A stretch of DNA of 39,003 nt from Candidatus Cloacimonadota bacterium (GCA_014382495.1 JACNJR010000041.1:1-39003); one strand, 5' to 3'. Positions 11,158 through 28,589 are shown, counted from the stretch's first letter. Notes: generated from the letters alone by a model not told the origin. Program-made: numbers and translations.

Positions 11158-12135
11158 TTAATGTAAAATGTCAAAAGAGATTCTTAGTATATTATGAGTT
11201 TCTTGAATCTGATATGCGATATCAAAATTAAAAGTTGTATCTCGCCAGATTTTGAGCAGTTCAAAACCAATTCCAAAACTGAATCTTCTGTTTTCGCCAG
11301 TGAATAATTCCTGCGAATATCCTGCTCGTAATGCCAACAATTTGTTGAAAAATTTCGTTTCAATTCCTGTTTTTATTTCGTCTTCACAATCGCTTGATAA
11401 CGCTTTGTCATAATCCATAGAAAAGGTGAATTTGTCGTTTTCAAAAGCATAACCGAAAATAAGGTCAACTGCTCGCGACTCGGAATATTCTCCTTTTGCT
11501 GTTCCCACATCATTCTTAGAATTCCAAAGAATATTATTTATCGGATTACGCCACATTAATCCGAATTTATCATTTTCAGAAATCATAAATTGCAATCCAA
11601 AATCAATTCCAAAACCACTTGCTGAACCAGAAATCTGGTGTTCGCCATCGCCATCAATGTATGAACCATCGTTATTATTCCCAAAAGAGTGACTATAATA
11701 TTTTAGATTCATTCCAAAATTAAATCTATCTGCAAGTGAGGGCAAACGAACCAAATTATCACTTATAAATTTACCATTTATAGCAGAAGAGAGAAATAAA
11801 ACTGCTTCAGAGAAAACATCATCACCACAATATATCATTGCGATTCCAAATGATATATTCTCTTGATTTTTGTAAGAATATCCCAAAAAAGAATAATTGA
11901 CAAGGTCAAGAAGGTTTGAATTATCAAAAGTAAAAGAATGCAGATTTTGAATATTACAAAGTCCTGCTGGATTCCAAATTATACTGCTCGGTTTATCTGC
12001 CAATGCTACAAAAGCGCCGCCCATTCCCATTGGTCTCGCTCCAAATTCATAAAAATTGGGATCAATATCATCTAATTCTGCAATTAGAAAATTAACAGCA
12101 TATAAAAACAAAACGAGCAATAATATTTTTTTCAT
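11158..12135 (-). CDS. PorV/PorQ-like (UPF0164/FadL superfamily) outer-membrane beta-barrel
   Basis: Signal peptide; hallmark GARPMGMGGAFVALAD...IWNPAGL; GFGIDFG, LALRAGY, FSFGIGF, FDIAY beta-strands. Confidence 0.85.
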   Translation of the reverse strand: MKKILLLVLFLYAVNFLIAELDDIDPNFYEFGARPMGMGGAFVALADKPSSIIWNPAGLCNIQNLHSFTFDNSNLLDLVNYSFLGYSYKNQENISFGIAMIYCGDDVFSEAVLFLSSAINGKFISDNLVRLPSLADRFNFGMNLKYYSHSFGNNNDGSYIDGDGEHQISGSASGFGIDFGLQFMISENDKFGLMWRNPINNILWNSKNDVGTAKGEYSESRAVDLIFGYAFENDKFTFSMDYDKALSSDCEDEIKTGIETKFFNKLLALRAGYSQELFTGENRRFSFGIGFELLKIWRDTTFNFDIAYQIQETHNILRISFDILH

Positions 12136-12139
12136 AATT

Positions 12140-15100
12140 TTATTTTATTAAGATAATTGTTTTAACAATCTCTTCTTTATGATTTGCATCTTCGGCAATA
12201 ATCTGGATTACATATCGTCCATTTCTTGCCATTTTACCATTTTTTGTCATTCCATCCCAATTGAGTGTAAACTCTTCGCCAGCTTCATAATTTCCTTTTA
12301 GCATTGGACGATTTTCTGCAATTGTCCGAACCAAAGTTCCAGTTAATGTATAAATTTTTGCTGTGATTTTTGGATATCGGCTTATCTTCGAAGAGATTTT
12401 GAAAATTATTTGAAGTCCCATATTTTTGCCAATTTGGTCATACGGAGAAAATGGGTTGGGAAGTAATTTCAAGTCATAAATTCCGAGCTGTTTAGATTCT
12501 GCTACAACGCCATATTCACCCAAACAAGGAATTGAATCCAGCTGTAAATATTCATAATTTTTTCTATTGCCGTTTGATGATGCATCCACCCATTCTAATT
12601 TTTCAACATCCCAATAAGCGATAAAAATACCAGACAAATCAATTCCTTCGTCAAATTCAAAGATAATTCCTGGCATTTTGGCAAAATTGGCAGTAGATCT
12701 GATATCAAACACTGAAGCCATAAGCTCAGAAGTTACAGTTGTTTCTTGCATCGGAGAGACCTGAACTTTTTCCAAATAAAGTTTTGCTGATCCAGAACTA
12801 AGCATTGCTTCTGGTAAGGTCAAATTGCAACCTTCTCCGCTATACAAAGTATCAGGTGAATTGGGGAAATCTAATTTTATGTAAACTGTGATTTGTTTTT
12901 CTGCCGTTACTTCGGTTCCATCATTTGGATCAAACGCCCAAACTTCTAAATCAAATTGACCAACAAAGTTTGAGTCAGGATTATACAGAATACTTTCTTG
13001 AACTTTTTCAAGAGTTCCTATTATCGAATCAACTGGTTCAAATTCAAAAAAATCTACATACATCGACGAACCTTCTGCTGAAACTGTAAATGAACAGGAT
13101 TCGTTATTTTGGATTTCATTTGGTCCATCAATAAGCAAATTTGCCAAATGCATATCTTTTACCTGAATGTCTTCAGTTTCTAATCTAATTGTAATTTCTT
13201 TCAAAGTAACTTTTGCTTTTATTTTTCCTATTCCATTATTATCTGCTGCTTTAAATAAAATCAATCGTTTTTCATCCGGAATTTGCTCAATTTCACCAAT
13301 AGTTGAATCTGATAAACTCCAAAAAACAGAACCAGAAACGTCAACAGAATCATTCAGACAATTACCTGCATCATCCCAAAGATTCGCTTCAAATGTAGTT
13401 TCTTGATTGTAAGCAAAAAGTGCTTCATTTGGTGTTATGTTGGAATAATCGTGTGAAAGCATTCCTTCAGAAGTTAAGGTCCAAATATATGGAGAACTTT
13501 GGTTGCTGAATGTAATTCCAAGTGTATCCGATTGTGAATTAAACCAAAATGTTATATCACCAGATTTCAATTGTGGAGGAATTTTAAATATTAAAAGTGT
13601 GTCATTTTCATCTGTCATTTCAATTTCATATTCGTTATTATCAGCATCTTTGTAATGTAAAAATACTTGGTCATTATATGTGCCTTTGTGCAAAGATATT
13701 TTGATAGAATCCAAAGCTGATTGTGATACAATTTGTGATTTATCAAACTGAAGCGGCAATTGTTTCTCTTGAGAATAACATCGCAAAGTGTCCAAAGTTA
13801 AAGTATACGACAAAGGATTTATGTAATCTCCGAAAGAACCGGTAGATTTTGAAATTAAAATTGAATATTCTCTCGTATGAAGAGTGGAATCAGTAGAACA
13901 ATTTCCGGTAGAATCTGTATAAATCGTTGTGTTGAAATTTGCCGAAGTTATTTTTACTGAAACATTTTGAATTGGAGTTGAACCATCTTCGGTAATTGTA
14001 AATTCAATACTACACAAAACATAATCAAAAGTATAATCAATAGTTGTATCATCTGTTATTGAAATATTTAAAATGTCGTGTGAAAATAATTCATTATCGT
14101 ATTCGGCTTCAATTTGTAAATTGTAAATTCCATCTTCTAAATCCGTAAAAATGTATTCTCCATATTGGTTTGTCGATGTAGTATCAATTGGAAAATTTGT
14201 AGAATCTTTAAGAATAATGTTTGCAGAAGGTAATGCTTCATCTTCCATTTTAATAAATCCACTTACATTTGCCGCGTTCGGATTATAAATGAATTCATTA
14301 TATCTATAAACTGAATCTCCGATTGAAACAGAAATATCTAATTCCTGAAAATTGAAATTAATACTTTCATAAGTGGCATTTATTGATAAATCATAATTCC
14401 CATCTGATAATTCGTCAAATTCATATTGGCTTAGAGAGATTTCCTCTTCAAAATCATTTTCTGGACATTCAAGAATAATTGTGGCACTTGTTGGATGTAC
14501 GGTATTAGGATGATCTGTAGATTTATTTATTATCCATATTTCACCAGTTAGTTTTGATGGTTTGGGTTGTAAAATCAATTCAAGATAGCAATTATTTTGA
14601 TCTGAAGTTAGCTCGATTTCCGAAATTTCAGAAATATAATAATTTTCTTTTTCAGCATAGATTGAATAAATTCCAATAGAATCTACTTGAATCGAATATG
14701 ATCCTTCTGCATCCGTAGTATCCGAATATGTGTTGCCGTTTCTTTCGGCAAAAACTACAGCAGCTTGTAATGGCTCAGAATTTGTATTTTTCACTAATCC
14801 GAAAATTGTGAGTAATTTTTGAGTCAAATAAAAATCAACGGTTGATGGGTCAGAAATTCCACCAGATAATGAAACGATTGTATCAGGAATATCCTCATAT
14901 CCTAAATGTGAAACTGAGACGTGATATATTCCATCTTCCAAATTTGAAAATAAAATTGAACCATTTGATGTTGTCACCAAACTGTCGATAACCTCGTCAT
15001 TTTTAAATAATTTCACTTTTGCATTTGCTATACCGTCTTTTGACTCGTTTTCATAAACTCCGCCAGATATTGAATTCTCCAGAAAACTTAGATTAAATCT

Positions 15101-18100
15101 TGGAAGTTCGACCGTCTGTCCTTCATCAATTTCAACTTGTGGGAATGTTTCCTCAGCTGTAAATCCTTCTAAAATAATACTAATATCATAAGTTCCAGCT
15201 GTTATTCCCGGCACATCAAATTTACCATTTGAATCTGTTACATCGCTCATAACTTGACCACTCATAATATTGGATGCATAAACAATCACGCCCGCTTTGG
15301 GATTATCATTGTAATAAACTTCTCCAATAATATGTGATGCTTGCATAAGCTCAATATCGATACAAATTGGCTGACCATTTTCTATTCCTATTCCTTGAAA
15401 TTGACTCACCAAATCATCTCCAACCTCTGCCCAAATATCATAATATCCTGATAATCCAGTAATCGAAAAATCGCCGAATTCATTTGAATATGTTTCATTT
15501 GAAAAGCCATCAAGATTTTTTGCTGTGATAAGAGAAGAACCGACTTCAACTCCGTCATCATAAACTGTACCCAGAACTGAATTTGGAATCATATCAAGAG
15601 TAATTGAGACATCGGTTGAATCGGTCGTTAGCGAATCTGGATGTGAATAATCATTATATCCAAGTTTTGAGCAGGTTAAGGAATAATTGTGAAGTTCTTG
15701 TAAATTTGAGATAGAAAACACGCCTGCAGCGGAAGTAGTATCAATAAATTCTTCATCATTGTGACATAAAGTAACAATTACATTTTTCAAAAATGTTTCC
15801 TCAGAATTTTTTACAATTCCCGAGATGGAACCTAATTCCGGTTCAAGCTGGAAATTGTAATTTAGTATTTCAAAATCTTCCAAATCGAGCATTTCACTTT
15901 GTGCAACATATCCTGGACGAGTTGCTGATAATTCGTAATTTTCCTCATAAAGATAAGAAAACTCATAATTCCCATTTTCAGAAGTTATGAAATTTTGGAT
16001 TTCATCACCAAAAGCCAAAACAACTTCAGCATTTGAAATTGGATTTGAAGTAGTATCTTCAATAATTCCAGATATTTTTGCAGAATGAATGTCGATTACC
16101 AAATTAATATTTGTGATATTTTCGGTTTCAACAGAAATCAATGTGTCGGCATTGTCATAATCATCTGATGGAAGGTTTGAACCAATTGTCGTGGTTGTAT
16201 ATGGGTTGACATTTTCAAATATAAAAAGTCCACCGCTGTCTGTCGTATCACTCAATAATTGCTCCTGATTAAATAGGTTTATGGAAGTGGAATCAATTGG
16301 TCTGTTATCCGTGTCGATCAAATAACCGGAGATGTCTATAGAGTCTGTATATGTAAGATCAATGTTTTGAGTTGTTTCTGACCTGTGTGCCACATATACA
16401 CTATCAATAATTTTTGTCTCATACGATTGTTTGGATATGGTAAAATCGTAATTCCCTTCATATAAAAATTTGATCGAATATGTTCCGTCAGGTTGGGATG
16501 TTCCGGAATAGGTGTTACCATTTTCGGCTTGAATGGTTATCATTGCACCCTGAACCGGATCCCCGGTAACATCGTTTGTAACGGTTCCCACAAATTCCGA
16601 GGTGTGGAGAGACATTGTCAGGCTGTTTGGCATAGAATTAACGGGATCATCTTCAATTGTAAATACGGTATCAGTATTTTCCCAACCTTGTTGGTATTTA
16701 TCGGTTGCAACCGTATAAGTTTCATAAGGGGCTAATTCCTGAAGAGAAAACTGTCCGTCAGAATTTGTGATTCCCGCACTTGATGCAGTTGGTGAAGTTG
16801 CAGTTACATCTACATTTTCCAGAGTATTTCCCTCTTGATCAACCACAACACCGGTTATTGATTTGTTATTAGGAATCATTATTAATGTTGTATCATAACT
16901 TGCTTGATAAAGAGGTATTGTGTCCGGCTGAACATCTGTGTAATCTTCCAAAGAAAGAGTTATCACATAATCTCGATTTGGATTTAGATTCTGCAATGTG
17001 AAATTTCCTACCGGATCCGTTGTAGTATTTCCAGAAAATCCATCTAAACTAACTGCACAAACTTCCACATTTCCCAATCCAATACTTTCATCATCAATTA
17101 CCTTACCAGTAATAGACGCATTTGTAAGTTCCATTGTGAATTTTAATGTGAGTGTTTCATTTGGTTCAATTGTTATTAAAGTATCATCACAAACATAGTT
17201 CGTTTTGCTCGCAGAGATATTGTATTCAACATATCCTGCCAGTCCAGTTAATTGACAAAATCCATCAGAATTTGTCACATCGGAAGTAATCACGCCGGTT
17301 AAATCGTTTTCTGCAGAAATTGTTACATTGCTCAATGGATTTGAGTTTTGATTTACTACTTCGACTTTAAGGGTTGAAGTTAGAGAAGTTAATTCGGCAT
17401 TTTTGGTAATTGTTGCTCCAGCTGGAATTACAATATTAGTTAAAATTTCTATTTCGTAATTTTCTTTTGTAATAGTAATTGTGTAATAAAAACCTGGTAA
17501 AATATTTTCCAAAATATAAAATCCTGATGAATTGCTGTAGGTTGCTCCTCCGCCACCAGAAGATAGATTTGCTGAGATAAATGCATTTTCTATCGAATTT
17601 CCAATTGTAGCATCTGTTATGGTTCCTTGAATTGTGCTGAAATTTTCTTCCAAAAATAATGTTGTGTCAATCGTTGAACCAGGATTTATCTCCAAATTAA
17701 TTGTGTTTTGCAAATATCCATTCTTATATGCAGTAATCTCATACTCACCTTGGCTAATTCCAAGAGTAAATTCGCCATTGGAAGCAGAAGTGGTCTGAAA
17801 TGTATTAGTATCTTGCACAGCTTGAATTGTTACTTGTCCTAAAGGATATAGATTGCCTTCATAATCATAGGATTTCACATAACCATTTACAGATGAAGAA
17901 AGTGCAGAAAGGGTTAATTCGGTTGAGAAGGATTGTTCAAGTTCTAAGGGTACTTCGGTTGTTGCTTCGTCAGATGAATATCCTGTTTTACTTCCAATAA
18001 TGTTATATTCTACCAATGGTGTTACAATTAAAGAAAAATTTCCATAAACGCCACTAACTGTAGAATAAGAATTTTCAGGATTGTTAACTTCCTCAATATC

Positions 18101-20848
18101 TATAGAAACATTTCTTAGGACATTTCCTGATTGAGTTACAGTTGTGCCTGTGATATACGCTTCATAAGGAGTTAATTCAATATTTTGATTGGAAATTGTT
18201 TGACCTGGTCCAACTGTAATATCAAGTGTATCGCCTTCGTCGCAGATAAAACCATTTTTCTCAGCCCAAATTTTATATGTTGCAGAATAGAGATTTAATT
18301 CGTAATTTCCATCATTATCCGAATTTGTCCCTTGGATATAAGAGCCATTGCTGACTTTAAAACCGGTTATTTGAGCATTTGCAATGCTGTTTCCAGAAGA
18401 AAGAATTGTTCCAGAAATTACGCTTGCATTTGGATTCAAAACAAAATTTATACCTTGAATAGTTTGTCCTGCGCCAATAGAAATTGTCTGCGGTTCACTG
18501 CTTGTGTATCCACTTTTAGTTGCTGAGACAAGATATGTTTCGGGACTTACATCGATACTATAATTTCCTGAATTATCTGTAATATCCTGATTGTCGCCGG
18601 CAAAAACAGTTACATCGGAAAGTCCGCTCCCGCTTGATGTTACCGTTCCTTCTATATAGCTGTCGTCAGGAAGAAGTATGAAATTTATACCATTGACAGT
18701 TTCGCCGACAGAAAGATTTAATTGATGTGTATTTTGGGAAGTATAATTATCAAAAATTGCGGTTAATTCATAATTTCCACTTAAAAGATTTAATGTATAA
18801 TTTCCATATTCATTTGTATAAGTGCTAACCGGATTTCCTGCAGATGGAGTAGCTCTTATCTCAACATCTTCTAATACAATAACGCTATTATTTGCATTTC
18901 CATTGACGATATTCGCTTGAGGTGTAAGTATAATATCACTCAAAGTCATTGATGAAGGAGATGAGATTGTAATATCAACAATAGTAGGGTCTGGCGAATA
19001 ATATCCATTTTTCTGCGCATAGATAGACCATTCGCCAAGTTCCAATCCATTAAATTGATATAAACCACTTGAATTTGTAGATTTTGTTCGTGTGATATCA
19101 CCTTTTGTTGCAGTAACAGTTACACAAGAAAGAGGAACGCCAGAAGTATTCTTCACGGCACCTGTTACATCTTTATCGTTCAAAACTAACACCAAATCAT
19201 CAAGATTTGCATTCTCGCCTAAACCGATGTTATATTCTATTGAAGATTGAAGCGAATAACTTTCTTTATCCGCAGTGATTGTCCACATTCCGGGAATAAC
19301 AGCGATAGAATAATTTCCGTTTGAAGTCGTATTTGTTCTGATTTCCCCATCATCTTTTTCAGCCGTAATCTCACAATTTTCTATAAGATATCCATTTGTG
19401 TCTACAACTGAACCATAAAAGAAACAGGTAGAATATTCTAAAGTTATTGGCACATATACAGTATCACCTGGCACAATTAGGTTTGCAGTTTCAGAATTCG
19501 TTTCGTATCCTTCTTTGCTGGCGGTAAGAATGTATTCTCCAAGTGGAAGTGTTTTGTATTCATATCCTGACTGTCCAACCGATAATGGAATATTATCGCC
19601 AGAACCTTCAACAGGGTCAATGATAACATTTGCAAAACCAATTCCAATCAAATCTTCTTCAACTTCGTGATTGACAAATATCTTAAATGTTCCGACCGGA
19701 ATATGATATGTAAATTCAAATGTTTCGCTGCAAGCACTATTTCCATCTTCGTCGGAAGCAATTACTTTCCAAACATATCTCGCATCAACCAAAATTGAAC
19801 TCGCATTGAAATCGATTAAATTATTTGTTGTAACTTCATTCCAAACTGGATATTGAACTTCGCTTCCAGATTCAATTATTATTTCAGAAAGATAAATATG
19901 GTAAGTTGCTGCTTCTTCTACATCACTCCATTCGAATGTGATGTAATCGTCGCCATCGATAATTGTTGTGTCGCCTGGAGTTGTGTTTTCTGGACTAATG
20001 AGTTCTGGTGCTTCGATTGTAATTTCTGCTGCATAAGTAAATCCAAACGGGGTTGATGCAACATCTGAAGTCAAAAGCGGGTCATTGCCGTAATTATTCA
20101 TAACAATCCAATTATAGTCAATTTCATTAACAAGTGGCGGAGCATCGTATGAAAAATTTCCAGATGGATCGGGGGAGCCATAATCTGCGAAATTATTTGG
20201 AGTAATTACCGACCAAATTGGATTTAGTCCAGTTACAACTAAATTGCCTTCGTTATCGTGAGTAAGCGAAAAAGGGCTGTCTGACAAAATTAAAAAATAA
20301 TATGGCACACCTGGATTAGTATCCCAACTAAAAGTAGGCACTTGTTCTTCAATCACTGTTCCATTTGCTGGTGCATTCATACTTACTGCATCCGATGATT
20401 CAATAATTAGCTGAAATTCTGCTGAGGTCCACTCTTGCACCGCATTGTATATTACGCAATAATAAACTCCAACTCCAATTCCAATATCATCTGCACACGT
20501 TTCAATACTTGATCCATCGTTAATATTTACGCCAAAACCCGAAATTCCGCTTGGTATATAATTATCTATTTCAGTTCCACCTGGAGCAGTTGAATAATAC
20601 AAAATACCTAAACTATCTTCTGGAAGCCAGGAAATTCCAAATGTTTCATCTGCTTTGAAGAGATCCATCGGAATTTCTATCAACACAATTTCATTATCAC
20701 GATTTGAAGGGTTAAAAAGTAAATCCTGATTTATATTGCTTTCTGAAAATAGATTAAAATTTGCCGAAAGAAAATTGAAGTTTGCTATAAATATTCCAAA
20801 GCAAATCAAAATTACAAATTTTCTAATGTTCAATTTTTTCATTTTCAT
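12140..20848 (-). CDS. Giant secreted repeat protein (about 23 carboxypeptidase-regulatory-like/CnaB-type beta-sandwich repeats) with a T9SS type-B-like/FlgD-Ig C-terminal domain; putative surface adhesin or filament
   Basis: Signal peptide; two N-terminal FN3/Ig-like units (P.NG...PTFSW; PELISP...ITFEW); repeats of about 85 aa with pattern I.G.V.D..G..l..v.v.A......T...G.y.....G.Y.i.a.K.GY; C-terminus LPNPFSP...KIYTLTGTLVRTI...WDG..KNG....NGRY...KTIILIK. Confidence 0.85.
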   Translation of the reverse strand: MKMKKLNIRKFVILICFGIFIANFNFLSANFNLFSESNINQDLLFNPSNRDNEIVLIEIPMDLFKADETFGISWLPEDSLGILYYSTAPGGTEIDNYIPSGISGFGVNINDGSSIETCADDIGIGVGVYYCVIYNAVQEWTSAEFQLIIESSDAVSMNAPANGTVIEEQVPTFSWDTNPGVPYYFLILSDSPFSLTHDNEGNLVVTGLNPIWSVITPNNFADYGSPDPSGNFSYDAPPLVNEIDYNWIVMNNYGNDPLLTSDVASTPFGFTYAAEITIEAPELISPENTTPGDTTIIDGDDYITFEWSDVEEAATYHIYLSEIIIESGSEVQYPVWNEVTTNNLIDFNASSILVDARYVWKVIASDEDGNSACSETFEFTYHIPVGTFKIFVNHEVEEDLIGIGFANVIIDPVEGSGDNIPLSVGQSGYEYKTLPLGEYILTASKEGYETNSETANLIVPGDTVYVPITLEYSTCFFYGSVVDTNGYLIENCEITAEKDDGEIRTNTTSNGNYSIAVIPGMWTITADKESYSLQSSIEYNIGLGENANLDDLVLVLNDKDVTGAVKNTSGVPLSCVTVTATKGDITRTKSTNSSGLYQFNGLELGEWSIYAQKNGYYSPDPTIVDITISSPSSMTLSDIILTPQANIVNGNANNSVIVLEDVEIRATPSAGNPVSTYTNEYGNYTLNLLSGNYELTAIFDNYTSQNTHQLNLSVGETVNGINFILLPDDSYIEGTVTSSGSGLSDVTVFAGDNQDITDNSGNYSIDVSPETYLVSATKSGYTSSEPQTISIGAGQTIQGINFVLNPNASVISGTILSSGNSIANAQITGFKVSNGSYIQGTNSDNDGNYELNLYSATYKIWAEKNGFICDEGDTLDITVGPGQTISNQNIELTPYEAYITGTTVTQSGNVLRNVSIDIEEVNNPENSYSTVSGVYGNFSLIVTPLVEYNIIGSKTGYSSDEATTEVPLELEQSFSTELTLSALSSSVNGYVKSYDYEGNLYPLGQVTIQAVQDTNTFQTTSASNGEFTLGISQGEYEITAYKNGYLQNTINLEINPGSTIDTTLFLEENFSTIQGTITDATIGNSIENAFISANLSSGGGGATYSNSSGFYILENILPGFYYTITITKENYEIEILTNIVIPAGATITKNAELTSLTSTLKVEVVNQNSNPLSNVTISAENDLTGVITSDVTNSDGFCQLTGLAGYVEYNISASKTNYVCDDTLITIEPNETLTLKFTMELTNASITGKVIDDESIGLGNVEVCAVSLDGFSGNTTTDPVGNFTLQNLNPNRDYVITLSLEDYTDVQPDTIPLYQASYDTTLIMIPNNKSITGVVVDQEGNTLENVDVTATSPTASSAGITNSDGQFSLQELAPYETYTVATDKYQQGWENTDTVFTIEDDPVNSMPNSLTMSLHTSEFVGTVTNDVTGDPVQGAMITIQAENGNTYSGTSQPDGTYSIKFLYEGNYDFTISKQSYETKIIDSVYVAHRSETTQNIDLTYTDSIDISGYLIDTDNRPIDSTSINLFNQEQLLSDTTDSGGLFIFENVNPYTTTTIGSNLPSDDYDNADTLISVETENITNINLVIDIHSAKISGIIEDTTSNPISNAEVVLAFGDEIQNFITSENGNYEFSYLYEENYELSATRPGYVAQSEMLDLEDFEILNYNFQLEPELGSISGIVKNSEETFLKNVIVTLCHNDEEFIDTTSAAGVFSISNLQELHNYSLTCSKLGYNDYSHPDSLTTDSTDVSITLDMIPNSVLGTVYDDGVEVGSSLITAKNLDGFSNETYSNEFGDFSITGLSGYYDIWAEVGDDLVSQFQGIGIENGQPICIDIELMQASHIIGEVYYNDNPKAGVIVYASNIMSGQVMSDVTDSNGKFDVPGITAGTYDISIILEGFTAEETFPQVEIDEGQTVELPRFNLSFLENSISGGVYENESKDGIANAKVKLFKNDEVIDSLVTTSNGSILFSNLEDGIYHVSVSHLGYEDIPDTIVSLSGGISDPSTVDFYLTQKLLTIFGLVKNTNSEPLQAAVVFAERNGNTYSDTTDAEGSYSIQVDSIGIYSIYAEKENYYISEISEIELTSDQNNCYLELILQPKPSKLTGEIWIINKSTDHPNTVHPTSATIILECPENDFEEEISLSQYEFDELSDGNYDLSINATYESINFNFQELDISVSIGDSVYRYNEFIYNPNAANVSGFIKMEDEALPSANIILKDSTNFPIDTTSTNQYGEYIFTDLEDGIYNLQIEAEYDNELFSHDILNISITDDTTIDYTFDYVLCSIEFTITEDGSTPIQNVSVKITSANFNTTIYTDSTGNCSTDSTLHTREYSILISKSTGSFGDYINPLSYTLTLDTLRCYSQEKQLPLQFDKSQIVSQSALDSIKISLHKGTYNDQVFLHYKDADNNEYEIEMTDENDTLLIFKIPPQLKSGDITFWFNSQSDTLGITFSNQSSPYIWTLTSEGMLSHDYSNITPNEALFAYNQETTFEANLWDDAGNCLNDSVDVSGSVFWSLSDSTIGEIEQIPDEKRLILFKAADNNGIGKIKAKVTLKEITIRLETEDIQVKDMHLANLLIDGPNEIQNNESCSFTVSAEGSSMYVDFFEFEPVDSIIGTLEKVQESILYNPDSNFVGQFDLEVWAFDPNDGTEVTAEKQITVYIKLDFPNSPDTLYSGEGCNLTLPEAMLSSGSAKLYLEKVQVSPMQETTVTSELMASVFDIRSTANFAKMPGIIFEFDEGIDLSGIFIAYWDVEKLEWVDASSNGNRKNYEYLQLDSIPCLGEYGVVAESKQLGIYDLKLLPNPFSPYDQIGKNMGLQIIFKISSKISRYPKITAKIYTLTGTLVRTIAENRPMLKGNYEAGEEFTLNWDGMTKNGKMARNGRYVIQIIAEDANHKEEIVKTIILIK
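13754..19693 (-). repeat. Array of about 23 diverged protein-domain repeats within the giant gene
   Basis: Hand alignment of the translation; similarity is at protein level only, with no long identical DNA repeats seen. Confidence 0.75.
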
Positions 20849-22566
20849 TAAAACTCATAAGTCAATGTTGTTCTCAAAATTGGTGAAGGCAAAGCGATTA
20901 GATTTAAATCGATAAATGAATTTTTATAAACTCTGAAACCAAAACCAATTGCTAAAGAACCAAGCGGGATATTTTTCATTGGCTCAACTGTTTCGTCATT
21001 ATCATCTTTGAAACCTTCTAATATCTGGTCGGCAAGAATAAACTGTCCGCTTATTGCCAATCTTCCGTAGCCGACTGCAAACTTGAAATTGTGCTGCATC
21101 TTTAATCCAAGTGTGTAGCTCTTGTGGGTTGTATCTGCATAATCTATGAAATCGCCATTTTCACTCTTATTTCTGCCGTCTTCATATACATCACATTCAT
21201 AATGAAAAGAGAGTTCTCCTAAGGGTTTTTTATAAGATAAGATAAATTTCCAAGGACCATTTTTTGCTGCTGCGCTAAATTCAATTCCACCGGGATAAGA
21301 TAATTCCAGTATATTACTTTCGTAAACGGTTCTGTTTGTATATGTAAGTTCAGCAGGTTTTAGCAGTTCCATGTCAAAAAGTTCCTCGCCATCTAAATTT
21401 AATGCCCCAAGAGTATGTTGAACGATTCTTAAAGAGCCGTTAAGATTTGCTTTTTTCGGCAAATTATAAACAGCATCAAGATATAGCCAATTGTTGGGCT
21501 TATAACTACACGCAAGTTTTGCGCCAAACAGATTTTTATGAAAATCTATTTCAATCGAATCATTCAAAGTATTTCTATAACTAACATTGGGGTCATTAAA
21601 AGCAACATTAATATCGATATCGCCGCCAGTTTGACGAATCATACCGTTTATTTTTGCAGTTAGGTTTGAAACAATGTTACAATCCAAAAAATTCACTCCG
21701 ATTCCGACAGACAAATCGTCACTAATTTTTCTCCCGAATCCAATATCCACTTGGCTAAAATCAATATTAAGATTAGAAAAAAGTTCAATGCCAAGAGGAA
21801 CCAATGTTGTTTCAAGATTTCCATCACTATTTGTCGAAGTATCTTTTATAGTTACAGAAATTCCGTTTCCGATAAGTTCAAAATCAAGCATCAAAGGTTT
21901 ATGAAAAGCGATTCCCCAGCTTCCAAATTCTGTTTGTGAAAATGTATAAGCGAAACCATTCAATCCGCCTATCTGCCCGCCGAAAATATCTATTTCTGGA
22001 TATGTTGGCTCCAAATCTTCAGATTTCATATCTTCAATTCCGTTATCAACTTGCGTCTCTATCATATTGTTCAATTGCCAATAATAATCGCCAGCATTCA
22101 CGGAAAATGATGGGCTGTAATCCAGCGATAATTTTCTCACATTTATTGGAATTTCTATCCTACTAATTTCAAAATCTTTAAGAATTCCAATTAAATCTTT
22201 TCTGGAAGTTTTTTCCACAGGAAAAATCAACGGCACGCCGTCAATTTCCAATCTATCCACAGCTTTTTTTAGGTATTCTATCGATGCTTTTTCAATATCG
22301 ATTGTTGTATATTTCTCGATGAAAACAAGTCCCGCAGGATTGTTGCAAGCAAGGGATGGGTCGTTAATTATCGAAGAAATAGTATTGCCAAAGTTGCTGC
22401 TGTGCGCTCCAATTCCCATCAAGGCGCTGCTATAAAATTTAAAGTTAATTTTATGATTCCCACCTTCAAATGTCGTTATTTCATTATCTGCTAAAAGTGG
22501 AGAAATTAAAATAAATAAAATGACAAAATTACTTATTAAAAATTTCACAATTTTTTTCTTATTCAT
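20848..22566 (-). CDS. Outer-membrane beta-barrel protein, distant FadL/PorV superfamily
   Basis: Signal peptide; degenerate plug motif ALMGIG...DPSLACNNPAGL; amphipathic strands (DIGFGRKISDDLSVGIGVN); C-terminal beta-signal LRTTLTYEF; its stop overlaps the next start (TAATG). Confidence 0.7.
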   Translation of the reverse strand: MNKKKIVKFLISNFVILFILISPLLADNEITTFEGGNHKINFKFYSSALMGIGAHSSNFGNTISSIINDPSLACNNPAGLVFIEKYTTIDIEKASIEYLKKAVDRLEIDGVPLIFPVEKTSRKDLIGILKDFEISRIEIPINVRKLSLDYSPSFSVNAGDYYWQLNNMIETQVDNGIEDMKSEDLEPTYPEIDIFGGQIGGLNGFAYTFSQTEFGSWGIAFHKPLMLDFELIGNGISVTIKDTSTNSDGNLETTLVPLGIELFSNLNIDFSQVDIGFGRKISDDLSVGIGVNFLDCNIVSNLTAKINGMIRQTGGDIDINVAFNDPNVSYRNTLNDSIEIDFHKNLFGAKLACSYKPNNWLYLDAVYNLPKKANLNGSLRIVQHTLGALNLDGEELFDMELLKPAELTYTNRTVYESNILELSYPGGIEFSAAAKNGPWKFILSYKKPLGELSFHYECDVYEDGRNKSENGDFIDYADTTHKSYTLGLKMQHNFKFAVGYGRLAISGQFILADQILEGFKDDNDETVEPMKNIPLGSLAIGFGFRVYKNSFIDLNLIALPSPILRTTLTYEF

Positions 22567-22580
22567 CGATTGATTTCGTG

Positions 22581-25500
22581 TTAAAATTTTATCATACTTT
22601 CGAGTGAAAATGCGATTCCTTTTGTGTTTCCAGGATTTGGTGAACCATAATTTCTGATATCAAAATTAAGTTCCAAATGTTCAAAATCTAAACCACTTCC
22701 AAACGAATAATAAGTTGCTTCGCCAAATCCAAATTCTGCGCGAAATGGCATCCAACTTAGCAAACGATAATCTGTCAAAAGTGAAATTTTAGCTTTTTTA
22801 GAAGTAAAAATACTATTCTCAAATCCTTGCTGATAATCAAGATAAAATGTTAGATTTTTCCATCGATATGTCCCTTCCAAGTGAAGTTCTAATGGGATTT
22901 TCTGCTCAATATTTCCAATCGAAAATGAAGTATCAGAATCGACAATTAATGAGTCGTCAAAATCAGCAAAAAAGATTGAATCGGCAGAAATATTGAAATG
23001 ATGTTCTTCACATTTTTCAGTCCAATTTATATTTCCAAATAAATTTTTCAGAGAGAATCCGACCGCAAATTTTCTATTAATTTGAGAAAAAATTCCGACA
23101 TCAGTTCGAAATCCTGTTCCAGCCGGAACGGAAATTTCTTTATTATCCGAATCGTATCCAGCACTTTTCAAAATCAATTCATTTTCGAAAGAGAATCCAG
23201 CATCTGATGAGCAGAAATTTGATTCAGATTGTTCAAGTTTTGCGTAAGCCAATCCAGTTAAATATCCAAAACTTATTCCTGCATAAACTGGTGGAAAATT
23301 TTTAAGAAAAGGGAGAAATTTTGATGCTGAAAGTTTTTCTCCATATCCAAATTTTGTTTCAACAAACGAAACAAATTCCATATTATTATTCGGAAATTTA
23401 TAAACTGTTTCCCACTCATTTCCATTTAGAAGCAAATCAAAAAATTCTTTGGAAATATTTACAGAACTTGCGATTATTATGTCGTTTGTCAAAGCAAAAT
23501 TTGATAATGAAAATGAACAAATTGGTGCCACTAAATTGATTTCAGAATCGATTCCAAAACCTTCATCAGGAATGTAATCCAGAAAATCCTGTTTATCATT
23601 TTCAGACAAATTTTTGCCCATCAAATCATTGTAATAATCGATTGAAAATGAGTTATTTGAAATATCAAAATTGGATTGAAACAAGTTCATCGAAAAAGAA
23701 TTTTCTTTCAATCCGAGATAAGCGGGATTCCATTTCAGTGATTGAAATCCAGATTTTTTTGAAAGATAAATCATCTTTTCCGCTTCTATCTTTTGCTCAA
23801 ATATTTTTTGAATCGCTTCGAGCGAATTTTGAAGAATTATAATTTCTGGATTATCATCTTTCAATTTTTGCTTGCGAATTTTTAGAGCTTTTTGGTAAAA
23901 TATTTTTGCTTGTGTATATTTTTTTTGACTAAAATATAGTTCGGCGAGATTGGCTTGAATCACAGCAACTTGCAGATGTCCATCGCCAAAAACTTTTTTT
24001 CTGATTTTCAATACTTCATTGAACAGAGATTCTGCTTTGGGAAAATTTTTCTGAATCAGATACAAAACTGCGAGATTATTTTTTGAAGTTGCAATTGTAG
24101 GATGTCCTGATTCAACATTTTTCTTTTTGATTTCCAAAGAGCGTTTATACATCAGCTCGGCTTCTTGATAATTTTTCTGTTCCCTATAGACAGCAGCAAG
24201 ATTGTTCAGTGTCGTCGCAACTTGCATATGAGTGGTTCCGAGCGTCTTTTCAAAAATATCCAAAGCTTGAAGATAAAATGATTCTGCTTCACCATATTCT
24301 TCTTTCGCAAAGTAGAGCAATCCAAGGCTATTCAAGGTTTGAGCGACATCTTGATGTATTTCGCCAAACACTTTTTTGCGAATTTTTAATGCCCGTTTGA
24401 GCAGCAAATCGGTATTTGAATATCTACCTTTGATTCTATACAATTCTGCAATATTATTCAGAGAAGTTGCGATATCAGGATGATTTGGATCTAAAATTTC
24501 TTCACGAATAGATAATGCTTTTTCGAATTTTTCTTCAGCCGCATCATAAAGATTTTGTGCAAAATAAATCAGCGCAAGATTGTTTAACGATTTTGCGACA
24601 TCTGGATGTTTAGCATCAAAAATTTTCTTTCGAATATTTATAGATTTTTTAGCCAAAATTTCTGCTTGCTCATAATTTTTCAAACGCCGATAAATCAGAG
24701 CCAAATTGTCTTGAGATTCTGCAATTTTTGGATGTTCAATATCGAAAATTTCTTTGCGTATTTTCAATGCCTGTTTTGCAAATTTTTTAGCTTCGGAATA
24801 TGCACCTTGTTCGAAATAAAGTAAGGCCAAATTGTCCAAATCTGTAGCGATATTTGGATGATTTTCACCAAAAATGTCTCTATCGTTTTTTAACACTTCT
24901 TTGAAGATTGGTTCCGCCTTTGAGTAAAGTCCGATTTTTCTGTAAATTAAAGCTAGTTCGTGTTTTATAGAAGTTACGATTGGATGCTTGGTGCCAAGAA
25001 CTTGCTGAATTGTTTCAATTGCATCTTTCAAAAGAGGTGCCGCTTTATCGTATTTTCCTTTAGTAATATATGATTTCGCAAGATTTTTCCGATAAATTGC
25101 AATCGTTGGATGATTTGGATTTAATATTTTTTGAATCGTTTGGAGAGATTCTTCGAATAGAGATTCCGCCTTTTCATACTCGCCTTGAGTATAATGAAGC
25201 ATTCCCAAATTATTTTGGGATTGTGCTACATCGGGATGATTTTTACCAAAAAATTCTTTTCGAATTTCGAGTGAGCATTCGTATAAAGATTTTGCCTTAT
25301 CGTATTGACCTTGCGTATAATAGAGCATTGCGAGATTATTCTGCGATTGCGCCACATCCGGATGATTCGAACCGAAAGATTGCTTTCTGATTTCCAAAGA
25401 TTGTTTGAAAAGTTTTTCTGCTTTTGAATATTCGCTTTGATAACGATATAATTCTCCAAGATTATTTAATGTGCTCGCCATTTGCAATGGATTTGTTTCA

Positions 25501-26063
25501 GATGATTCTTGGTAAATTTTCAACGCTCGCTTATACAACGGTTCGGCTTTAGAATATTCTCCTTGAATATGATAAACTAGTGCCAAACTATTCAAAGATT
25601 CAGCAATATTGGGACTATTTTCAGCAGAAATATTTTCACGAATTTCTAATGATTGTTTGGAAAATGATTCTGCTTTTTTGTAATTTCCTTGTGCGTAATA
25701 GAGCAGTGCTAAACTGTTTAGCGTTTGTGCTACATCAGAATGATTTGTTCCAAAAATGTTTTTACGAATCTCCAAAGAGCGCTTGTAAAGAATTTCTGCT
25801 TCGTCGTATTGACTTTGAATATGGTAAAGCAGAGCAAGATTATCTGCTGATTCCGCAACTTCGGGATGCGTTTTTCCGAAAGTATTTTCTGCGACTTTTA
25901 GAGCTTTTTCTGCAACAAGCACAGCTTCAGAATAATTGCCATTTTGATATAACTGAATTGAATTTTCAGTTAATGAAATCCACAATGAATCTTGAGAATA
26001 TACCAATCCAAATATCAAAGAAAATAGCAAGGCAAGCAAAATTTTTAGATTTTTATTTTTCAT
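22581..26063 (-). CDS. Fusion of 17 kinesin-light-chain-type (42-aa) TPR repeats to a DUF5723-like outer-membrane beta-barrel
   Basis: Signal peptide (ATG 26063 preferred over TTG 26078); repeats HPDVAxSLNNLAxLYxxQGxYxxAExLYxxALxIR; then WNPAYLG, ISNNSFSIDYYN, DKQDFLDYIP, FFDLLLNGN, GTGFRTDVG, NLFGNINW, terminal Phe. Confidence 0.82.
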   Translation of the reverse strand: MKNKNLKILLALLFSLIFGLVYSQDSLWISLTENSIQLYQNGNYSEAVLVAEKALKVAENTFGKTHPEVAESADNLALLYHIQSQYDEAEILYKRSLEIRKNIFGTNHSDVAQTLNSLALLYYAQGNYKKAESFSKQSLEIRENISAENSPNIAESLNSLALVYHIQGEYSKAEPLYKRALKIYQESSETNPLQMASTLNNLGELYRYQSEYSKAEKLFKQSLEIRKQSFGSNHPDVAQSQNNLAMLYYTQGQYDKAKSLYECSLEIRKEFFGKNHPDVAQSQNNLGMLHYTQGEYEKAESLFEESLQTIQKILNPNHPTIAIYRKNLAKSYITKGKYDKAAPLLKDAIETIQQVLGTKHPIVTSIKHELALIYRKIGLYSKAEPIFKEVLKNDRDIFGENHPNIATDLDNLALLYFEQGAYSEAKKFAKQALKIRKEIFDIEHPKIAESQDNLALIYRRLKNYEQAEILAKKSINIRKKIFDAKHPDVAKSLNNLALIYFAQNLYDAAEEKFEKALSIREEILDPNHPDIATSLNNIAELYRIKGRYSNTDLLLKRALKIRKKVFGEIHQDVAQTLNSLGLLYFAKEEYGEAESFYLQALDIFEKTLGTTHMQVATTLNNLAAVYREQKNYQEAELMYKRSLEIKKKNVESGHPTIATSKNNLAVLYLIQKNFPKAESLFNEVLKIRKKVFGDGHLQVAVIQANLAELYFSQKKYTQAKIFYQKALKIRKQKLKDDNPEIIILQNSLEAIQKIFEQKIEAEKMIYLSKKSGFQSLKWNPAYLGLKENSFSMNLFQSNFDISNNSFSIDYYNDLMGKNLSENDKQDFLDYIPDEGFGIDSEINLVAPICSFSLSNFALTNDIIIASSVNISKEFFDLLLNGNEWETVYKFPNNNMEFVSFVETKFGYGEKLSASKFLPFLKNFPPVYAGISFGYLTGLAYAKLEQSESNFCSSDAGFSFENELILKSAGYDSDNKEISVPAGTGFRTDVGIFSQINRKFAVGFSLKNLFGNINWTEKCEEHHFNISADSIFFADFDDSLIVDSDTSFSIGNIEQKIPLELHLEGTYRWKNLTFYLDYQQGFENSIFTSKKAKISLLTDYRLLSWMPFRAEFGFGEATYYSFGSGLDFEHLELNFDIRNYGSPNPGNTKGIAFSLESMIKF
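23847..25988 (-). repeat. 17 tandem 126-bp (42-aa) TPR units
   Basis: Exact 42-aa register from residue 31 to 744 of the ORF-track translation; synonymous sites have diverged between units. Confidence 0.85.
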
Positions 26064-26123
26064 TTTCAATTCTTTCAAATTATGCTGAAGACAGCGACCT
26101 CGGAAAATTTACTCTTCCCATAA

Positions 26124-28589
26124 TTATTCAGAAATGTGCACATTTACTTCAAGATAGCCGAAGATTCTTATATTATCACTTCCATAAATGGTAACCTCAT
26201 TGCCATCGGTTCCAATAATTGAAAATTCCACACCAAGATAAACATCAGGATTTAAGAATACATCGAAGTTTTGAGTAGCATTAATTTCGTCTAATGATAT
26301 TTCTATTTCACTCGTTTCATCAGCAAGAATGGATAACGAATCAATTATCAAATATGGCGAATCTTCCGATTCTGTCCAAATTTCTGTAGAATCATTTGTA
26401 AAATATAATTTTGTAATTGTACCAAAAGGAAGAGAATTTTCGGTAGTAAAAAGCAGTTTTACACTATTAAAATTTTCTTCAATAATGTCTTGCGTATCTT
26501 CATCAATTTCTATATGCTCAAGCGAATCCATTTTCATTGTATGGTTATTTATGATAAATTTAAGAGGAGTTTGTAAAGTATAACTTCCAGAAATTATATT
26601 ATCTTTTGAAATTGTTCCATTTCCATTTATTTCTGCATATGAATCTTGAATTTTTATGTGTGTGGGAAAGATATTAAGAAGTTCCGGAATTCCATCTGTG
26701 ATTATGATAGGTTCGCCTGGAATGATTGATTCTTCAATATCAATTTGCACACTGTCACCGGAATTGTTTTCGCCTGTTAGATGCAGAATCAAATCACAAT
26801 TAAATCCAATTCCATTATCAATTTCTAACTGAAGTTCGGCATTTTGAAATAAAAAAATTCCCTGCAACGTATCTGCGAATTCGCCCAAATCTATCTCTTC
26901 ATCCATATCATCAAGGTCTATTCTTTTGTCGTTTATTATTCCTGTTATCTCCTGGAAAATCAAATCACTTATGGTAATATCTGCATTGACATTATCAGTT
27001 GAAGTAATTGTAATAATATCTGCTGGCGTGTTTACGTTTACATTGTAATGCACAATCTGGTCTGGCGAAACAATTATAGAATGATTTGCAAAATTGTAAT
27101 TTACAAAATCGGTATTCGTAATTTCGACAGGATTGCCGATTTCATCTTTAATTTTATCAAATATAATTTTTATTTCAGGTTCGAAACTCAAACCAGAGAG
27201 TTCAATGTTTGCAAATCCGTTTTTAATCGTTGCTTGTTGCAAAATAATCTTTCCGCTTTCATCCTCGATTGAAAAAGAATCTTGATGTTCAAAACTCTGA
27301 TCAACATATCCAGAAACCTCTTCAAACCACATTTCACTAAGCTCGATTTTGGTATATATACTTTGTGTTTCATCAATTGTAACAAATCCGTCTGTTGAGT
27401 CGGTCGTAACAAAATACGAAAAATGCAAAGCATCTAAAATTTGCTTTTCTGCCCTTATTTCATAACCAGAAAAATCTAAATGATAATCAAGTGAATCATT
27501 TGCAGCGATTTCTAAATCTATTTGTGCAAGATTATCAAATGTATCAAATAATTCATCAAACTGAATTGTCACATTTGCACTAATTGGCAAATTATTCTTA
27601 ATCTTAATATTCCACACGCAACTATCAATTTTTGCAGAAGTTAATTGTATTTCATCATCTTCTATCGGAATTTCATCAATGTGTTGAATATGTTCAGCGG
27701 GAAGTTTCGCGCTTGCTTCAGTTACAGTCATTTCGCTAATACTGAATTTTATAACAAGCAGATCACCTTCTGATATATTTGCTGGCTCTGTGCCTGTGCC
27801 ATCTGTGGTAAGATATACTCTTAACGAATTATTCATATAAACCTTCTTCCCTGAAAGGTTTAATTCAACGGATTCAGTCGAACCTGCTTGAATGATATGG
27901 TCTATCTCGTGGTCTAATATCAAATTTTCAGGTGAAATTGGGTTTCCATAAATTTCTATTTTCATATAATGTTCTGGATCACTAGAACTTAATGGAATTT
28001 CAGTATTGTTGATAAAGTCGATATGTGCAAAGCCAGAATCTATGACAACATACTCGATGTTTTCATTTGGAAATGGTAAAAACTCGGTATCTAATGAAGG
28101 AATATTATAATAAGGCGGAATTGGTGTTCCTTGAACTTCACCCAATGATTCTGACAAATCTATCTCGGCTTGTGCTTCACCAGTTGCTTCAACAACTATT
28201 CTGTCCAATCCTTTGTCAAATTGGCTAATCAGTGAGTCAATTTTCAACTCATCACCAATTTGCACATTGAACGATTCCATTCGTTCTTCGATTTGAAGTT
28301 CATCACCAATTTGCTTATTAAACGATTCTGTCTGCCCTCCAACTTTCAGTTCATCTCCAATTCTCATTGTATCAAGTTCTCCAGAAAATGAAAACTGCAT
28401 CGTATCATTCTCAACTGCGAAAATAAAATCATCTGTCGTGTCGGCAAGTTCAGACATATAATACTTTTCGCTGATAAGTGGAAGGTTCAATTTCGTATCC
28501 CATTCTGGCGCTTGTGGCTCCTTTAGCGAACAGTTGAATAAACCAATTAGAGAAAAAACCATTGTAAAAAATAGAAAATATCTTTTCAT
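26124..28589 (-). CDS. Large acidic all-beta multidomain lipoprotein of unknown function
   Basis: Lipoprotein signal LIGLFN-C followed by SLKEPQAPEWDTKLNLPL; several internally similar beta-sandwich units (IDSGFAHIDFINNTEIPL, IDSCVWNIKIKNNLPI, IKNGFANIELSG, LEIDNGIGF, FTTENSLPF); SD GGAG. Confidence 0.75.
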   Translation of the reverse strand: MKRYFLFFTMVFSLIGLFNCSLKEPQAPEWDTKLNLPLISEKYYMSELADTTDDFIFAVENDTMQFSFSGELDTMRIGDELKVGGQTESFNKQIGDELQIEERMESFNVQIGDELKIDSLISQFDKGLDRIVVEATGEAQAEIDLSESLGEVQGTPIPPYYNIPSLDTEFLPFPNENIEYVVIDSGFAHIDFINNTEIPLSSSDPEHYMKIEIYGNPISPENLILDHEIDHIIQAGSTESVELNLSGKKVYMNNSLRVYLTTDGTGTEPANISEGDLLVIKFSISEMTVTEASAKLPAEHIQHIDEIPIEDDEIQLTSAKIDSCVWNIKIKNNLPISANVTIQFDELFDTFDNLAQIDLEIAANDSLDYHLDFSGYEIRAEKQILDALHFSYFVTTDSTDGFVTIDETQSIYTKIELSEMWFEEVSGYVDQSFEHQDSFSIEDESGKIILQQATIKNGFANIELSGLSFEPEIKIIFDKIKDEIGNPVEITNTDFVNYNFANHSIIVSPDQIVHYNVNVNTPADIITITSTDNVNADITISDLIFQEITGIINDKRIDLDDMDEEIDLGEFADTLQGIFLFQNAELQLEIDNGIGFNCDLILHLTGENNSGDSVQIDIEESIIPGEPIIITDGIPELLNIFPTHIKIQDSYAEINGNGTISKDNIISGSYTLQTPLKFIINNHTMKMDSLEHIEIDEDTQDIIEENFNSVKLLFTTENSLPFGTITKLYFTNDSTEIWTESEDSPYLIIDSLSILADETSEIEISLDEINATQNFDVFLNPDVYLGVEFSIIGTDGNEVTIYGSDNIRIFGYLEVNVHISE
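28209..28361 (-). repeat. Three imperfect 51-bp (17-aa) tandem repeats in the lipoprotein
   Basis: IGDELKVGGQTESFNKQ / IGDELQIEERMESFNVQ / IGDELKIDSLISQFDKG; Ile codons start at 28361, 28310 and 28259 on the minus strand (51-bp period). Confidence 0.85.

Follow-up and report, generated by a model that had tools for sequence, protein, structure and literature searches.

A 17-repeat TPR array fused to a DUF5723 barrel in a Cloacimonadota genome, and its possible role as a periplasmic arm

Why would an outer-membrane barrel that stands alone in its relatives be preceded, within one polypeptide, by a long array of tetratricopeptide repeats (TPRs), and what might such a chain do? The question is raised by a gene in a stretch of 39,003 nucleotides from a Candidatus Cloacimonadota bacterium (GCA_014382495.1 JACNJR010000041.1:1-39003), hereafter the window, which is an entire contig of a genome of 1.37 Mb, 94% complete and in 97 contigs. 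Relatives of the same family that are at least 87% complete have genomes of about 1.9-3.5 Mb. The initial annotation described here one uninterrupted open reading frame (ORF) with a signal peptide, 17 TPRs of 42 aa in exact register, a capping helix and a barrel resembling DUF5723. The frame, the repeat register, Pfam matches and a structural model all agree with this description, and the fusion is confirmed. Its parts are the following (residue numbers throughout are those of the 1160-aa form):

22581..26063, minus strand: the whole fusion gene, 1160 aa from an ATG, with no internal stop
26078, minus strand: alternative in-frame TTG start, 5 codons upstream, giving 1165 aa (the numbering of the initial annotation)
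25992..26063, minus strand: putative Sec-type signal peptide, about residues 1-24, without a lipobox Cys (from the translation, by eye)
23850..25991, minus strand: 17 TPR_10/TPR_12 repeats of 42 aa, residues 25-738 (Pfam and register print)
23778..23849, minus strand: half-repeat capping helix, residues 739-762 (model helix 18-41 and register print)
23751..23777, minus strand: junction or linker, residues 763-771, coil, inside the low-confidence stretch 752-768 (alignment to orthologues)
22584..23750, minus strand: DUF5723 barrel with the remaining N-terminal tail, ending ...MIKF (PF18990, model and structural matches)

The N-terminus, MKNKNLKILLALLFSLIFGLVYS/QD, has to the eye the look of a Sec signal peptide and no lipobox Cys. 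When the chain is cut every 42 residues, starting at residue 25, 17 repeats stand in exact register and a half repeat comes after them; the identity of the protein to itself at a lag of 42 is 0.379, against 0.04-0.11 across lags 30-49. Pfam recognises the array as 42-aa, kinesin-light-chain-like TPRs (TPR_12, E 7.8e-180; TPR_10, E 1.5e-179, in 16 stretches).

Is the join real? Because the window is a whole contig of a genome in 97 contigs, the possibility of a mis-join needed testing. Sequencing runs of five studies contain the stretch 23000-24600. No RNA run is listed among them, which carries no information on expression. We used Logan contigs (assembled contigs rather than raw reads) from four runs of four studies other than the possible source study. 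In one of them (X5, study P3) a single contig of 6677 nt spans 22400-26300 with 17 substitutions and covers the whole gene. Single contigs also extend over 22400-24430 (X3, P2), 23254-24454 (X7, P4) and 23629-23876 (X8, P5). The contigs of all four studies cross the junction, with no stop and no indel listed. Within the coding sequence there are 18 substitutions, of which 8 are synonymous, 10 non-synonymous and none a stop; in the TPR part 8 of 14 variants are non-synonymous. Both flanks are syntenic with relatives, with PdxA and RNase HII upstream and MurJ and UvrC downstream. The fusion does occur in nature. A chimeric contig, or an overlooked frameshift or stop uniting two separate genes, would also yield a unique architecture, but such an error is very unlikely, and the least probable of the explanations weighed here, given the independently assembled contigs (one of them over the whole gene), the synteny on both sides and a composition and codon use that fit the genome.

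Is the fusion found elsewhere? The barrel itself is widespread. It occurs in 31 of 40 relatives, always in open frames of at most 471 aa (against 1175 here), and in 154 of 231 other Cloacimonadota genomes at E <=1e-10, where, out of 159 matches, all 150 that were listed lie in open frames of 132-568 aa. An exhaustive search of a library of 1.84 billion representatives with the barrel part gave 608 matches at E <=0.001. In the best 150 of these the N-terminal extension ahead of the barrel does not exceed about 130 residues, and the few long proteins among them carry their extensions at the C-terminus. A word-based search with the barrel part gave no fused form of 638-2030 aa, a result that excludes close fused relatives only, since the same search missed 30%-identical barrels of 644-726 aa that were found exhaustively. 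The fusion protein of the window is itself absent from both protein libraries searched. Starting from the other half, PF18990 is found on none of the 120 nearest TPR proteins listed, on which all counts of TPR homologues in this work rest. We also fetched 24 loci (4-row alignment) from Cloacimonadota, Marinimicrobia, Calditrichales and one unclassified metagenome-assembled genome. In all 21 with an intact 5' end the barrel carries a signal peptide of its own, and the N-tail motif comes immediately after it. The orthologous stand-alone barrels are about 415-485 aa long, and no TPR lies within 5 kb of the barrel in any of the 24. Hence, no homologue that keeps the fusion was found among the relatives, the phylum genomes, the library matches listed or the fetched loci, and the fusion appears to be unique to one marine Cloacimonadota species. 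More generally, a long N-terminal TPR solenoid on a barrel of the FadL/PorV superfamily was not found in the sequence collections or the literature searched.

Some of the C-terminal extensions deserve a word of their own. Two DUF5723 barrels (P0033 and P0049) are followed by CarboxypepD_reg or TSP3 repeats and an OmpA peptidoglycan-binding domain, and P0149 is also among those with C-terminal extensions. These OmpA-bearing extensions suggest that the DUF5723 family has repeatedly acquired periplasmic modules.

What kind of barrel is it? The last 402 aa, searched alone, match PF18990 (DUF5723) with an E-value of 2.3e-17 and 64.2 bits against a cut-off of 26.8, over positions 1-371 of the 376 of the profile, and a genome-wide search recovers the same match. 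We modelled residues 722-1160 with 95 homologues in the alignment. The model has a mean predicted local distance difference test score (pLDDT) of 89.9 and a predicted template-modelling score (pTM) of 0.84. The pLDDT is about 95 from residue 771 on and below 50 at residues 752-768 (model 31-47), that is, at the end of the capping helix and the linker. Foldseek ranks TodX, TbuX and FadL highest (E 2.5e-9 and weaker). With VIA-align the closest structure is CymD (Z 24.5, rmsd 3.6, 287 residues aligned), followed by TodX, TbuX and FadL (Z 22-24), PorV of the type IX secretion system (T9SS; Z 21.2-21.5) and BamG, a subunit of the barrel assembly machinery (BAM) of Bacteroidota (Z 19.6-21.1). OmpG, CymA and autotransporter barrels reach Z 16.7 at most, which leaves about 6 Z units between the FadL-like structures and the fold class ranked next. 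The model, with a pLDDT of about 90 and matches in the FadL/TodX/PorV superfamily at Z 21-24.5, therefore bears out the expectation that the C-terminal part folds as a barrel, and over model residues 45-439 it shows the barrel-plus-N-tail fold of the FadL/TodX superfamily. The NPA motif, a hallmark of the FadL N-tail, is present as WNPA at residues 778-781.

The place of this barrel within the superfamily is less ordinary. Among solved structures the family profile reaches only PorV (E 7e-6) and TbuX (E 5e-4), and the C-terminal 402 aa give no match to NCBIfam at E <=10, which includes the PorV/PorQ (NF033709) and BamG (NF053685) models. On another contig the genome has a gene that fits BamG better (E 9.7e-36). 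It also encodes SprA and six PorV-family genes that score above the cut-off, besides several that score below. Since the fold is FadL-like and yet no PorV/PorQ or BamG model matches, the DUF5723 domain is, by sequence and model, a distinct and uncharacterised branch of the FadL/PorV superfamily. According to the part of a preprint that concerns it (bioRxiv 10.1101/2025.01.03.631275), a Brachyspira DUF5723 protein has been modelled with 16 strands. DUF5723 also occurs in Bacteroides, which served as a search control.

Where were the two parts joined, and what was lost? The barrel had been placed from about 23774, near WNPAYLG. Position 23774 is in the codon of Met764, which is indeed at the junction, whereas WNPA itself lies at about 23723-23732; in the alignment to orthologues, homology to the stand-alone barrels begins at about Tyr766. 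Ahead of WNPA, in which the P is invariant and the N and A nearly so across the 95 aligned sequences, the family consensus is ARSxxxxGxYxxxARGxEAxxWNPANL, and close relatives have ..S[IV]ALGGAYxxKARGFESLxWNPANLG. The corresponding segment of the fusion is QKIEAEKMIYLSKKSGFQSLKWNPAYLG. Relative to its orthologues the fusion lacks the barrel signal peptide and, from the start of the mature N-tail, 10-14 residues (the AR..G..G part); it has kept everything from about Tyr766, NPA motif included. The plug segment, once taken to be missing, is therefore missing in its distal part only: these 10-14 residues are replaced by the TPR cap and linker, so that the tail no longer has the length with which FadL-type tails run through the pore, but the remainder with WNPA is kept. 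The segment had been compared with that of a 325-aa barrel encoded further downstream, FGARPMGMGGAFVALADKPSSIIWNPAGL, which also has the AR..G..G part; that protein belongs to the PorV/PorQ family, not to DUF5723. The orthologous barrel stands alone, behind a signal peptide of its own, in 31 of 40 relatives and in all 21 loci with an intact 5' end, which supports the suggestion that the TPR block replaced the N-terminus of the barrel. As no hydrophobic leader is found downstream of the internal Met764, export of the barrel is now predicted to rely on the signal peptide that came with the TPRs.

The best sigma-70-like match of the region, TTGAAA-17-TATAAT (11/12), is found at 23836-23864 on the minus strand, in the last TPR repeat and about 60 nt upstream of Met764; a product started at Met764 would be without a signal peptide. 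The scan for promoters and terminators is at chance level (106 promoter-like matches against 88.5 +/- 10.6 expected, 9 terminator-like against 9.4), so that operon structure has to be read from gene spacing alone.

Where did the TPR part come from? Tandem Repeats Finder finds no array at the DNA level in the fusion gene, and identity between repeats averages 37% for amino acids and 52% for nucleotides, with a maximum of 69% for nucleotides. The repeats are thus old and diverged, and the array is no recent amplification. The TPR part uses synonymous codons as the genome at large does (z +0.36; z -0.66 for GC content at third codon positions), and in tetranucleotide distance it ranks at the 92nd percentile among random windows of equal size. 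The native codon use and the diverged repeats argue against a very recent fusion event and lend no support to the proposal that the TPR cassette replaced the N-terminus of the barrel recently.

The nearest TPR relatives among the 120 listed are long TPR proteins with at most 47% identity over the array. Many of them carry PF12770 (CHAT) and some PF00931 (NB-ARC), in agreement with the view that 42-aa TPRs usually accompany these domains. A crude test finds an N-terminus resembling a signal peptide, with the first repeat directly after it, in 69 of the 120, and one of them (P0193) is collinear with the fusion from the first repeat, its residues 32-102 aligning with residues 30-100 at 51% identity. 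These exported-looking homologues and this collinearity suggest that signal peptide and array most likely arrived together from an exported gene of the signal peptide-TPR-CHAT type. The TPR part has no paralogue in its own genome. The nearest TPR proteins of the class, in G030 and G037, were considered as the donor type and rejected, since they have a cyclase, AAA_16 and TPR architecture; the start of the G030 protein does not look like a signal peptide. A second TPR protein, of 541 aa (37354-38979), lies at the end of the window and has its best matches to the 34-aa models TPR_2 and TPR_1, not to the 42-aa type.

Does the barrel have a partner? The genes around the fusion, in the same orientation, are:

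26124..28589, minus strand: 821-aa lipoprotein (lipobox ..LFNC), the conserved partner gene of the barrel (orthology, predicted model)
20848..22566, minus strand: 572-aa protein directly downstream of the fusion (NF033709, E 1.2e-7, below cut-off)
12140..20848, minus strand: 2902-aa protein with 18 CarboxypepD_reg stretches and a C-terminus like the C-terminal domain (CTD) of T9SS cargo (Pfam)
11158..12135, minus strand: 325-aa barrel of the PorV/PorQ family (NF033709, E 3.2e-21, 76 bits, below the cut-off of 90)

The 821-aa ORF is 49% and 45% identical to genes of 989 and 1140 aa located directly upstream of the barrels of relatives. In 20 of 24 loci, from Cloacimonadota and Marinimicrobia, the gene immediately before the barrel gene is a homologue; in the Calditrichales locus the homologue lies downstream. 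In the relatives (loci L048-L070) these lipoprotein genes encode 500-1280 aa, match no Pfam family and share a conserved start, C..P.WD..L.IPLIN. Stop and start of the two genes overlap by 4 and 32 nt in the two relatives examined; in the window, a 60-nt spacer and the 2.3-kb block of signal peptide and TPRs separate the lipoprotein gene from the barrel part. Lipoprotein and DUF5723 barrel form a conserved two-gene module. The model of the lipoprotein is all-beta, a string of beta-sandwich domains (pLDDT 76), with which a fold search gave generic tandem beta-sandwich matches only (reelin, BDI_1231, SGBP-B) and a look-up in the Atlas unnamed clusters only.

Complex prediction with the lipoprotein and barrel orthologues of locus L061 gave a score of 0.51, against 0.24 for the best of 3 controls. 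Of 157 solved complexes 116 pass the mark used for such scores, as do 2 of 215 mismatches, and a score that reaches the mark without exceeding 0.60 is given by only 18 of the 157 solved complexes and by both passing mismatches. The runs agreed in at least 94% of contacts, with a partner pLDDT of at least 81. This lends weak support to a predicted lipoprotein-barrel complex for the L061 pair. It also fits, weakly, the theme of FadL-like barrels holding surface lipoproteins: in the part of PMC12611786 concerned with this pair, BamG binds BamH, a surface lipoprotein, at its lipidated N-terminus.

How does the fusion compare with known systems? A TPR domain and an outer-membrane barrel in one chain had been regarded as unusual, but the combination is not exotic. 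The sections of PMC9384988 on BcsC, PelB and PgaA describe TPR domains within the porin chain that bind periplasmic partners, and the 13 repeats of PgaA modelled as 110 Å long and perpendicular to the membrane. Three FadL-like proteins of T. pallidum are described, in the corresponding part of PMC8407342, with a small C-terminal helical bundle containing TPRs. Like BcsC, PgaA and PelB, the fusion is one exported chain in which a signal peptide and a long TPR superhelix precede a C-terminal barrel. It differs from them in having a FadL/PorV-like DUF5723 barrel with an N-tail instead of a porin-type barrel, repeats of the 42-aa TPR_10/12 type, orthologues of its barrel that are free of TPRs, and no synthase among the 24 window ORFs scanned; the structural matches listed include neither a BcsC nor a PgaA barrel. 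The overall size of BcsC is close to that of the fusion. The design of a TPR arm on an outer-membrane barrel is thus known from exopolysaccharide porins, to which a FadL-type barrel with a long TPR arm is newly added.

The other likenesses are partial as well. The stand-alone DUF5723 barrels of Cloacimonadota, Marinimicrobia and Calditrichales are orthologous (38-48% identity within the family, 25-32% within the class) and share the lipoprotein neighbour, but they have their own signal peptide, a complete N-tail and no TPR. The exported signal peptide-TPR-CHAT proteins start in the same way, with 42-aa TPRs immediately after the signal peptide and collinear from the first repeat, but their C-terminal CHAT or NB-ARC part is a membrane barrel in the fusion. 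BamG (with BamH) and PorV share with it the fold (Z 19.6-21.5) and a lipoprotein or cargo partner, whereas the fusion has no NCBIfam match to either, and a better BamG-like gene and at least six PorV-family genes above the cut-off are found elsewhere in the genome; in the parts of the literature that describe the BamG and PorV families, no TPR domain is mentioned for them. The T. pallidum proteins likewise combine a FadL-like barrel with a presumed periplasmic helical module bearing a TPR motif, but, as far as their published description covers it, this is a C-terminal three-helix bundle and not 17.5 N-terminal repeats that replace part of the tail.

What, then, could the fusion do? We think it reasonably likely that this is a species-specific fusion in which the TPR part acts as a periplasmic docking arm tethered to the barrel. 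An exported TPR module, with its own signal peptide and 17.5 repeats of the kinesin-light-chain/CHAT type, would have been joined in frame to the N-tail of the barrel, and the joining would have deleted the signal peptide of the barrel and the first 10-14 residues of its tail. The Sec system would export the chain by means of the TPR signal peptide, and BAM would insert the C-terminal barrel, which has a terminal Phe. The folded TPR superhelix, of roughly 150 Å when scaled from the 110 Å of the 13 repeats of PgaA, would then stay on the periplasmic side, connected to the barrel by a linker of about 9-17 residues. There it might dock a periplasmic partner or cargo at the barrel, as the TPRs of BcsC, PgaA and PelB do. 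The likeliest partner would be the lipoprotein of the module during its transit to the surface, or the T9SS-type cargo whose gene follows downstream; the 572-aa protein and the 325-aa PorV-family barrel, downstream in the same orientation, are further candidate clients. Because the lost distal tail reaches up through the pore in FadL-type proteins, its loss may also alter gating and leave the pore perhaps less plugged. The periplasmic position of the arm gains support from the design of BcsC, PelB and PgaA, from the DUF5723 barrels that bear OmpA domains and from the exported look of the donor-type TPR proteins.

Several observations nevertheless weigh against a docking arm. According to the passages on this point in PMC12611786, FadL-type N-tails thread the pore outward, so that the rest of the tail would have to run another way if the TPR part is periplasmic. 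With the fusion confined to one species-level genome, comparison offers no evidence that the TPR part is under selection. The ratio of 10 non-synonymous to 8 synonymous changes is only mildly below the neutral expectation, over 18 sites. The complex prediction is weak and was obtained for the pair of a relative, about 25-28% identical to the proteins of the window. Finally, in the passages naming DUF5723 that a full-text search returned, no function is assigned to the domain.

Could the fusion have brought no new function at all? A fragment of an exported TPR gene could have landed between the lipoprotein and barrel genes, to be tolerated since as baggage or to decay. The TPR signal peptide would then merely stand in for the one that was destroyed. 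The occurrence in a single species, the share of non-synonymous changes among the population variants (10 of 18 overall, 8 of 14 in the TPR part) and the small genome (1.37 Mb against about 1.9-3.5 Mb in family relatives) are all compatible with this idea. Yet, the 3.5-kb frame is intact, without a stop or an indel in the contigs of four other studies, and all 17 repeats hold their 42-aa register and consensus. Codon use is also fully native, which suggests that the TPR module has long been resident without breaking. A fusion without function is therefore unlikely.

A bolder proposal, which we rate slightly lower still, is that the polypeptide is by itself a protein conduit. The TPR arm, spanning the periplasm and standing in for the gating end of the N-tail, would capture the unfolded partner lipoprotein, or the CTD of the 2902-aa protein, in the periplasm and feed it to a barrel that is now unplugged, and the pair of lipoprotein and DUF5723 barrel in the Fibrobacterota-Chlorobiota-Bacteroidota (FCB) group would be a device for the export or anchoring of surface lipoproteins. 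If this were so, the fusion would be the protein-export analogue of BcsC, and a pair of genes widespread in the FCB group would be revealed as dedicated to surface lipoproteins.

The TPR part might instead be displayed outside the cell. In this case the N-tail would thread the pore and the TPRs would emerge as a passenger, as in autotransporters. FadL-type N-tails do reach the extracellular side (PMC12611786, in its account of these tails), and autotransporter translocators are among the weaker structural matches (NalP, Z 14.5; AIDA-I, Z 13.2). But the outward-reaching distal tail is exactly the part that was deleted, and FadL-like matches stand about 10 Z units above those to autotransporters. 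Moreover, we know of no case of a helical solenoid of 740 aa traversing a plugged FadL-like barrel. In the known TPR-barrel proteins the TPRs are periplasmic, as far as the relevant part of PMC9384988 goes. We regard surface display as improbable.

An exporter of exopolysaccharide similar to BcsC, PgaA or PelB, with the TPRs guiding the polymer to the pore, is more improbable again: the order and size of the parts recall BcsC, described in the section of PMC9384988 devoted to it with 19 predicted TPRs and a porin, and AlgE is among the weak Foldseek matches (TM-score 0.25-0.27), but this barrel is FadL/PorV-like with an NPA tail and not a porin of the BcsC/PgaA type, Pfam gives it no match to a BcsC-type barrel, no synthase or glycosyltransferase turned up in the Pfam scan of 24 ORFs of the window, and the same barrel works without TPRs in all relatives.

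The docking arm, if that is what the TPR part is, would matter beyond this locus. The lipoprotein-DUF5723 module is conserved in Cloacimonadota, Marinimicrobia and Calditrichales, and a natural fusion provides an experimental handle on it: anything bound by the arm can be considered a candidate for a client or partner of the module. The fusion also adds a FadL-type barrel to the few outer-membrane barrels known to bear a long TPR arm, hitherto exopolysaccharide porins, and shows that the N-tail of such a barrel can be both shortened and extended in nature. This importance must be set against the facts that one species carries the fusion, that the general design was known and that a docking role is suggested by analogy.

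The genes further along the locus give additional context. Between the barrel and MurJ, relatives carry other genes than the window does. The 572-aa protein, which starts with ..MGIG..NNPAGL, has homologues only in G012 among the 40 relatives. The 2902-aa protein, whose final 126 aa give matches to FlgD-Ig and to the C-terminal part of PorU (E 8.3e-7), is flanked by this 572-aa weak PorV/PorQ match and by the 325-aa PorV-family barrel. As to the TPR lipoprotein of the T9SS, the PorW/SprE model is unspecific, since it matches in 12 of 14 control genomes. One more gene is found on the other side of the fusion, three genes upstream of the lipoprotein gene:

30399-32513: 704-aa protein with a SurA-like N-terminal domain, of the periplasmic chaperone type

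Partial homologues of this protein are present at the same place in 3 of the 8 relative loci that were fetched.

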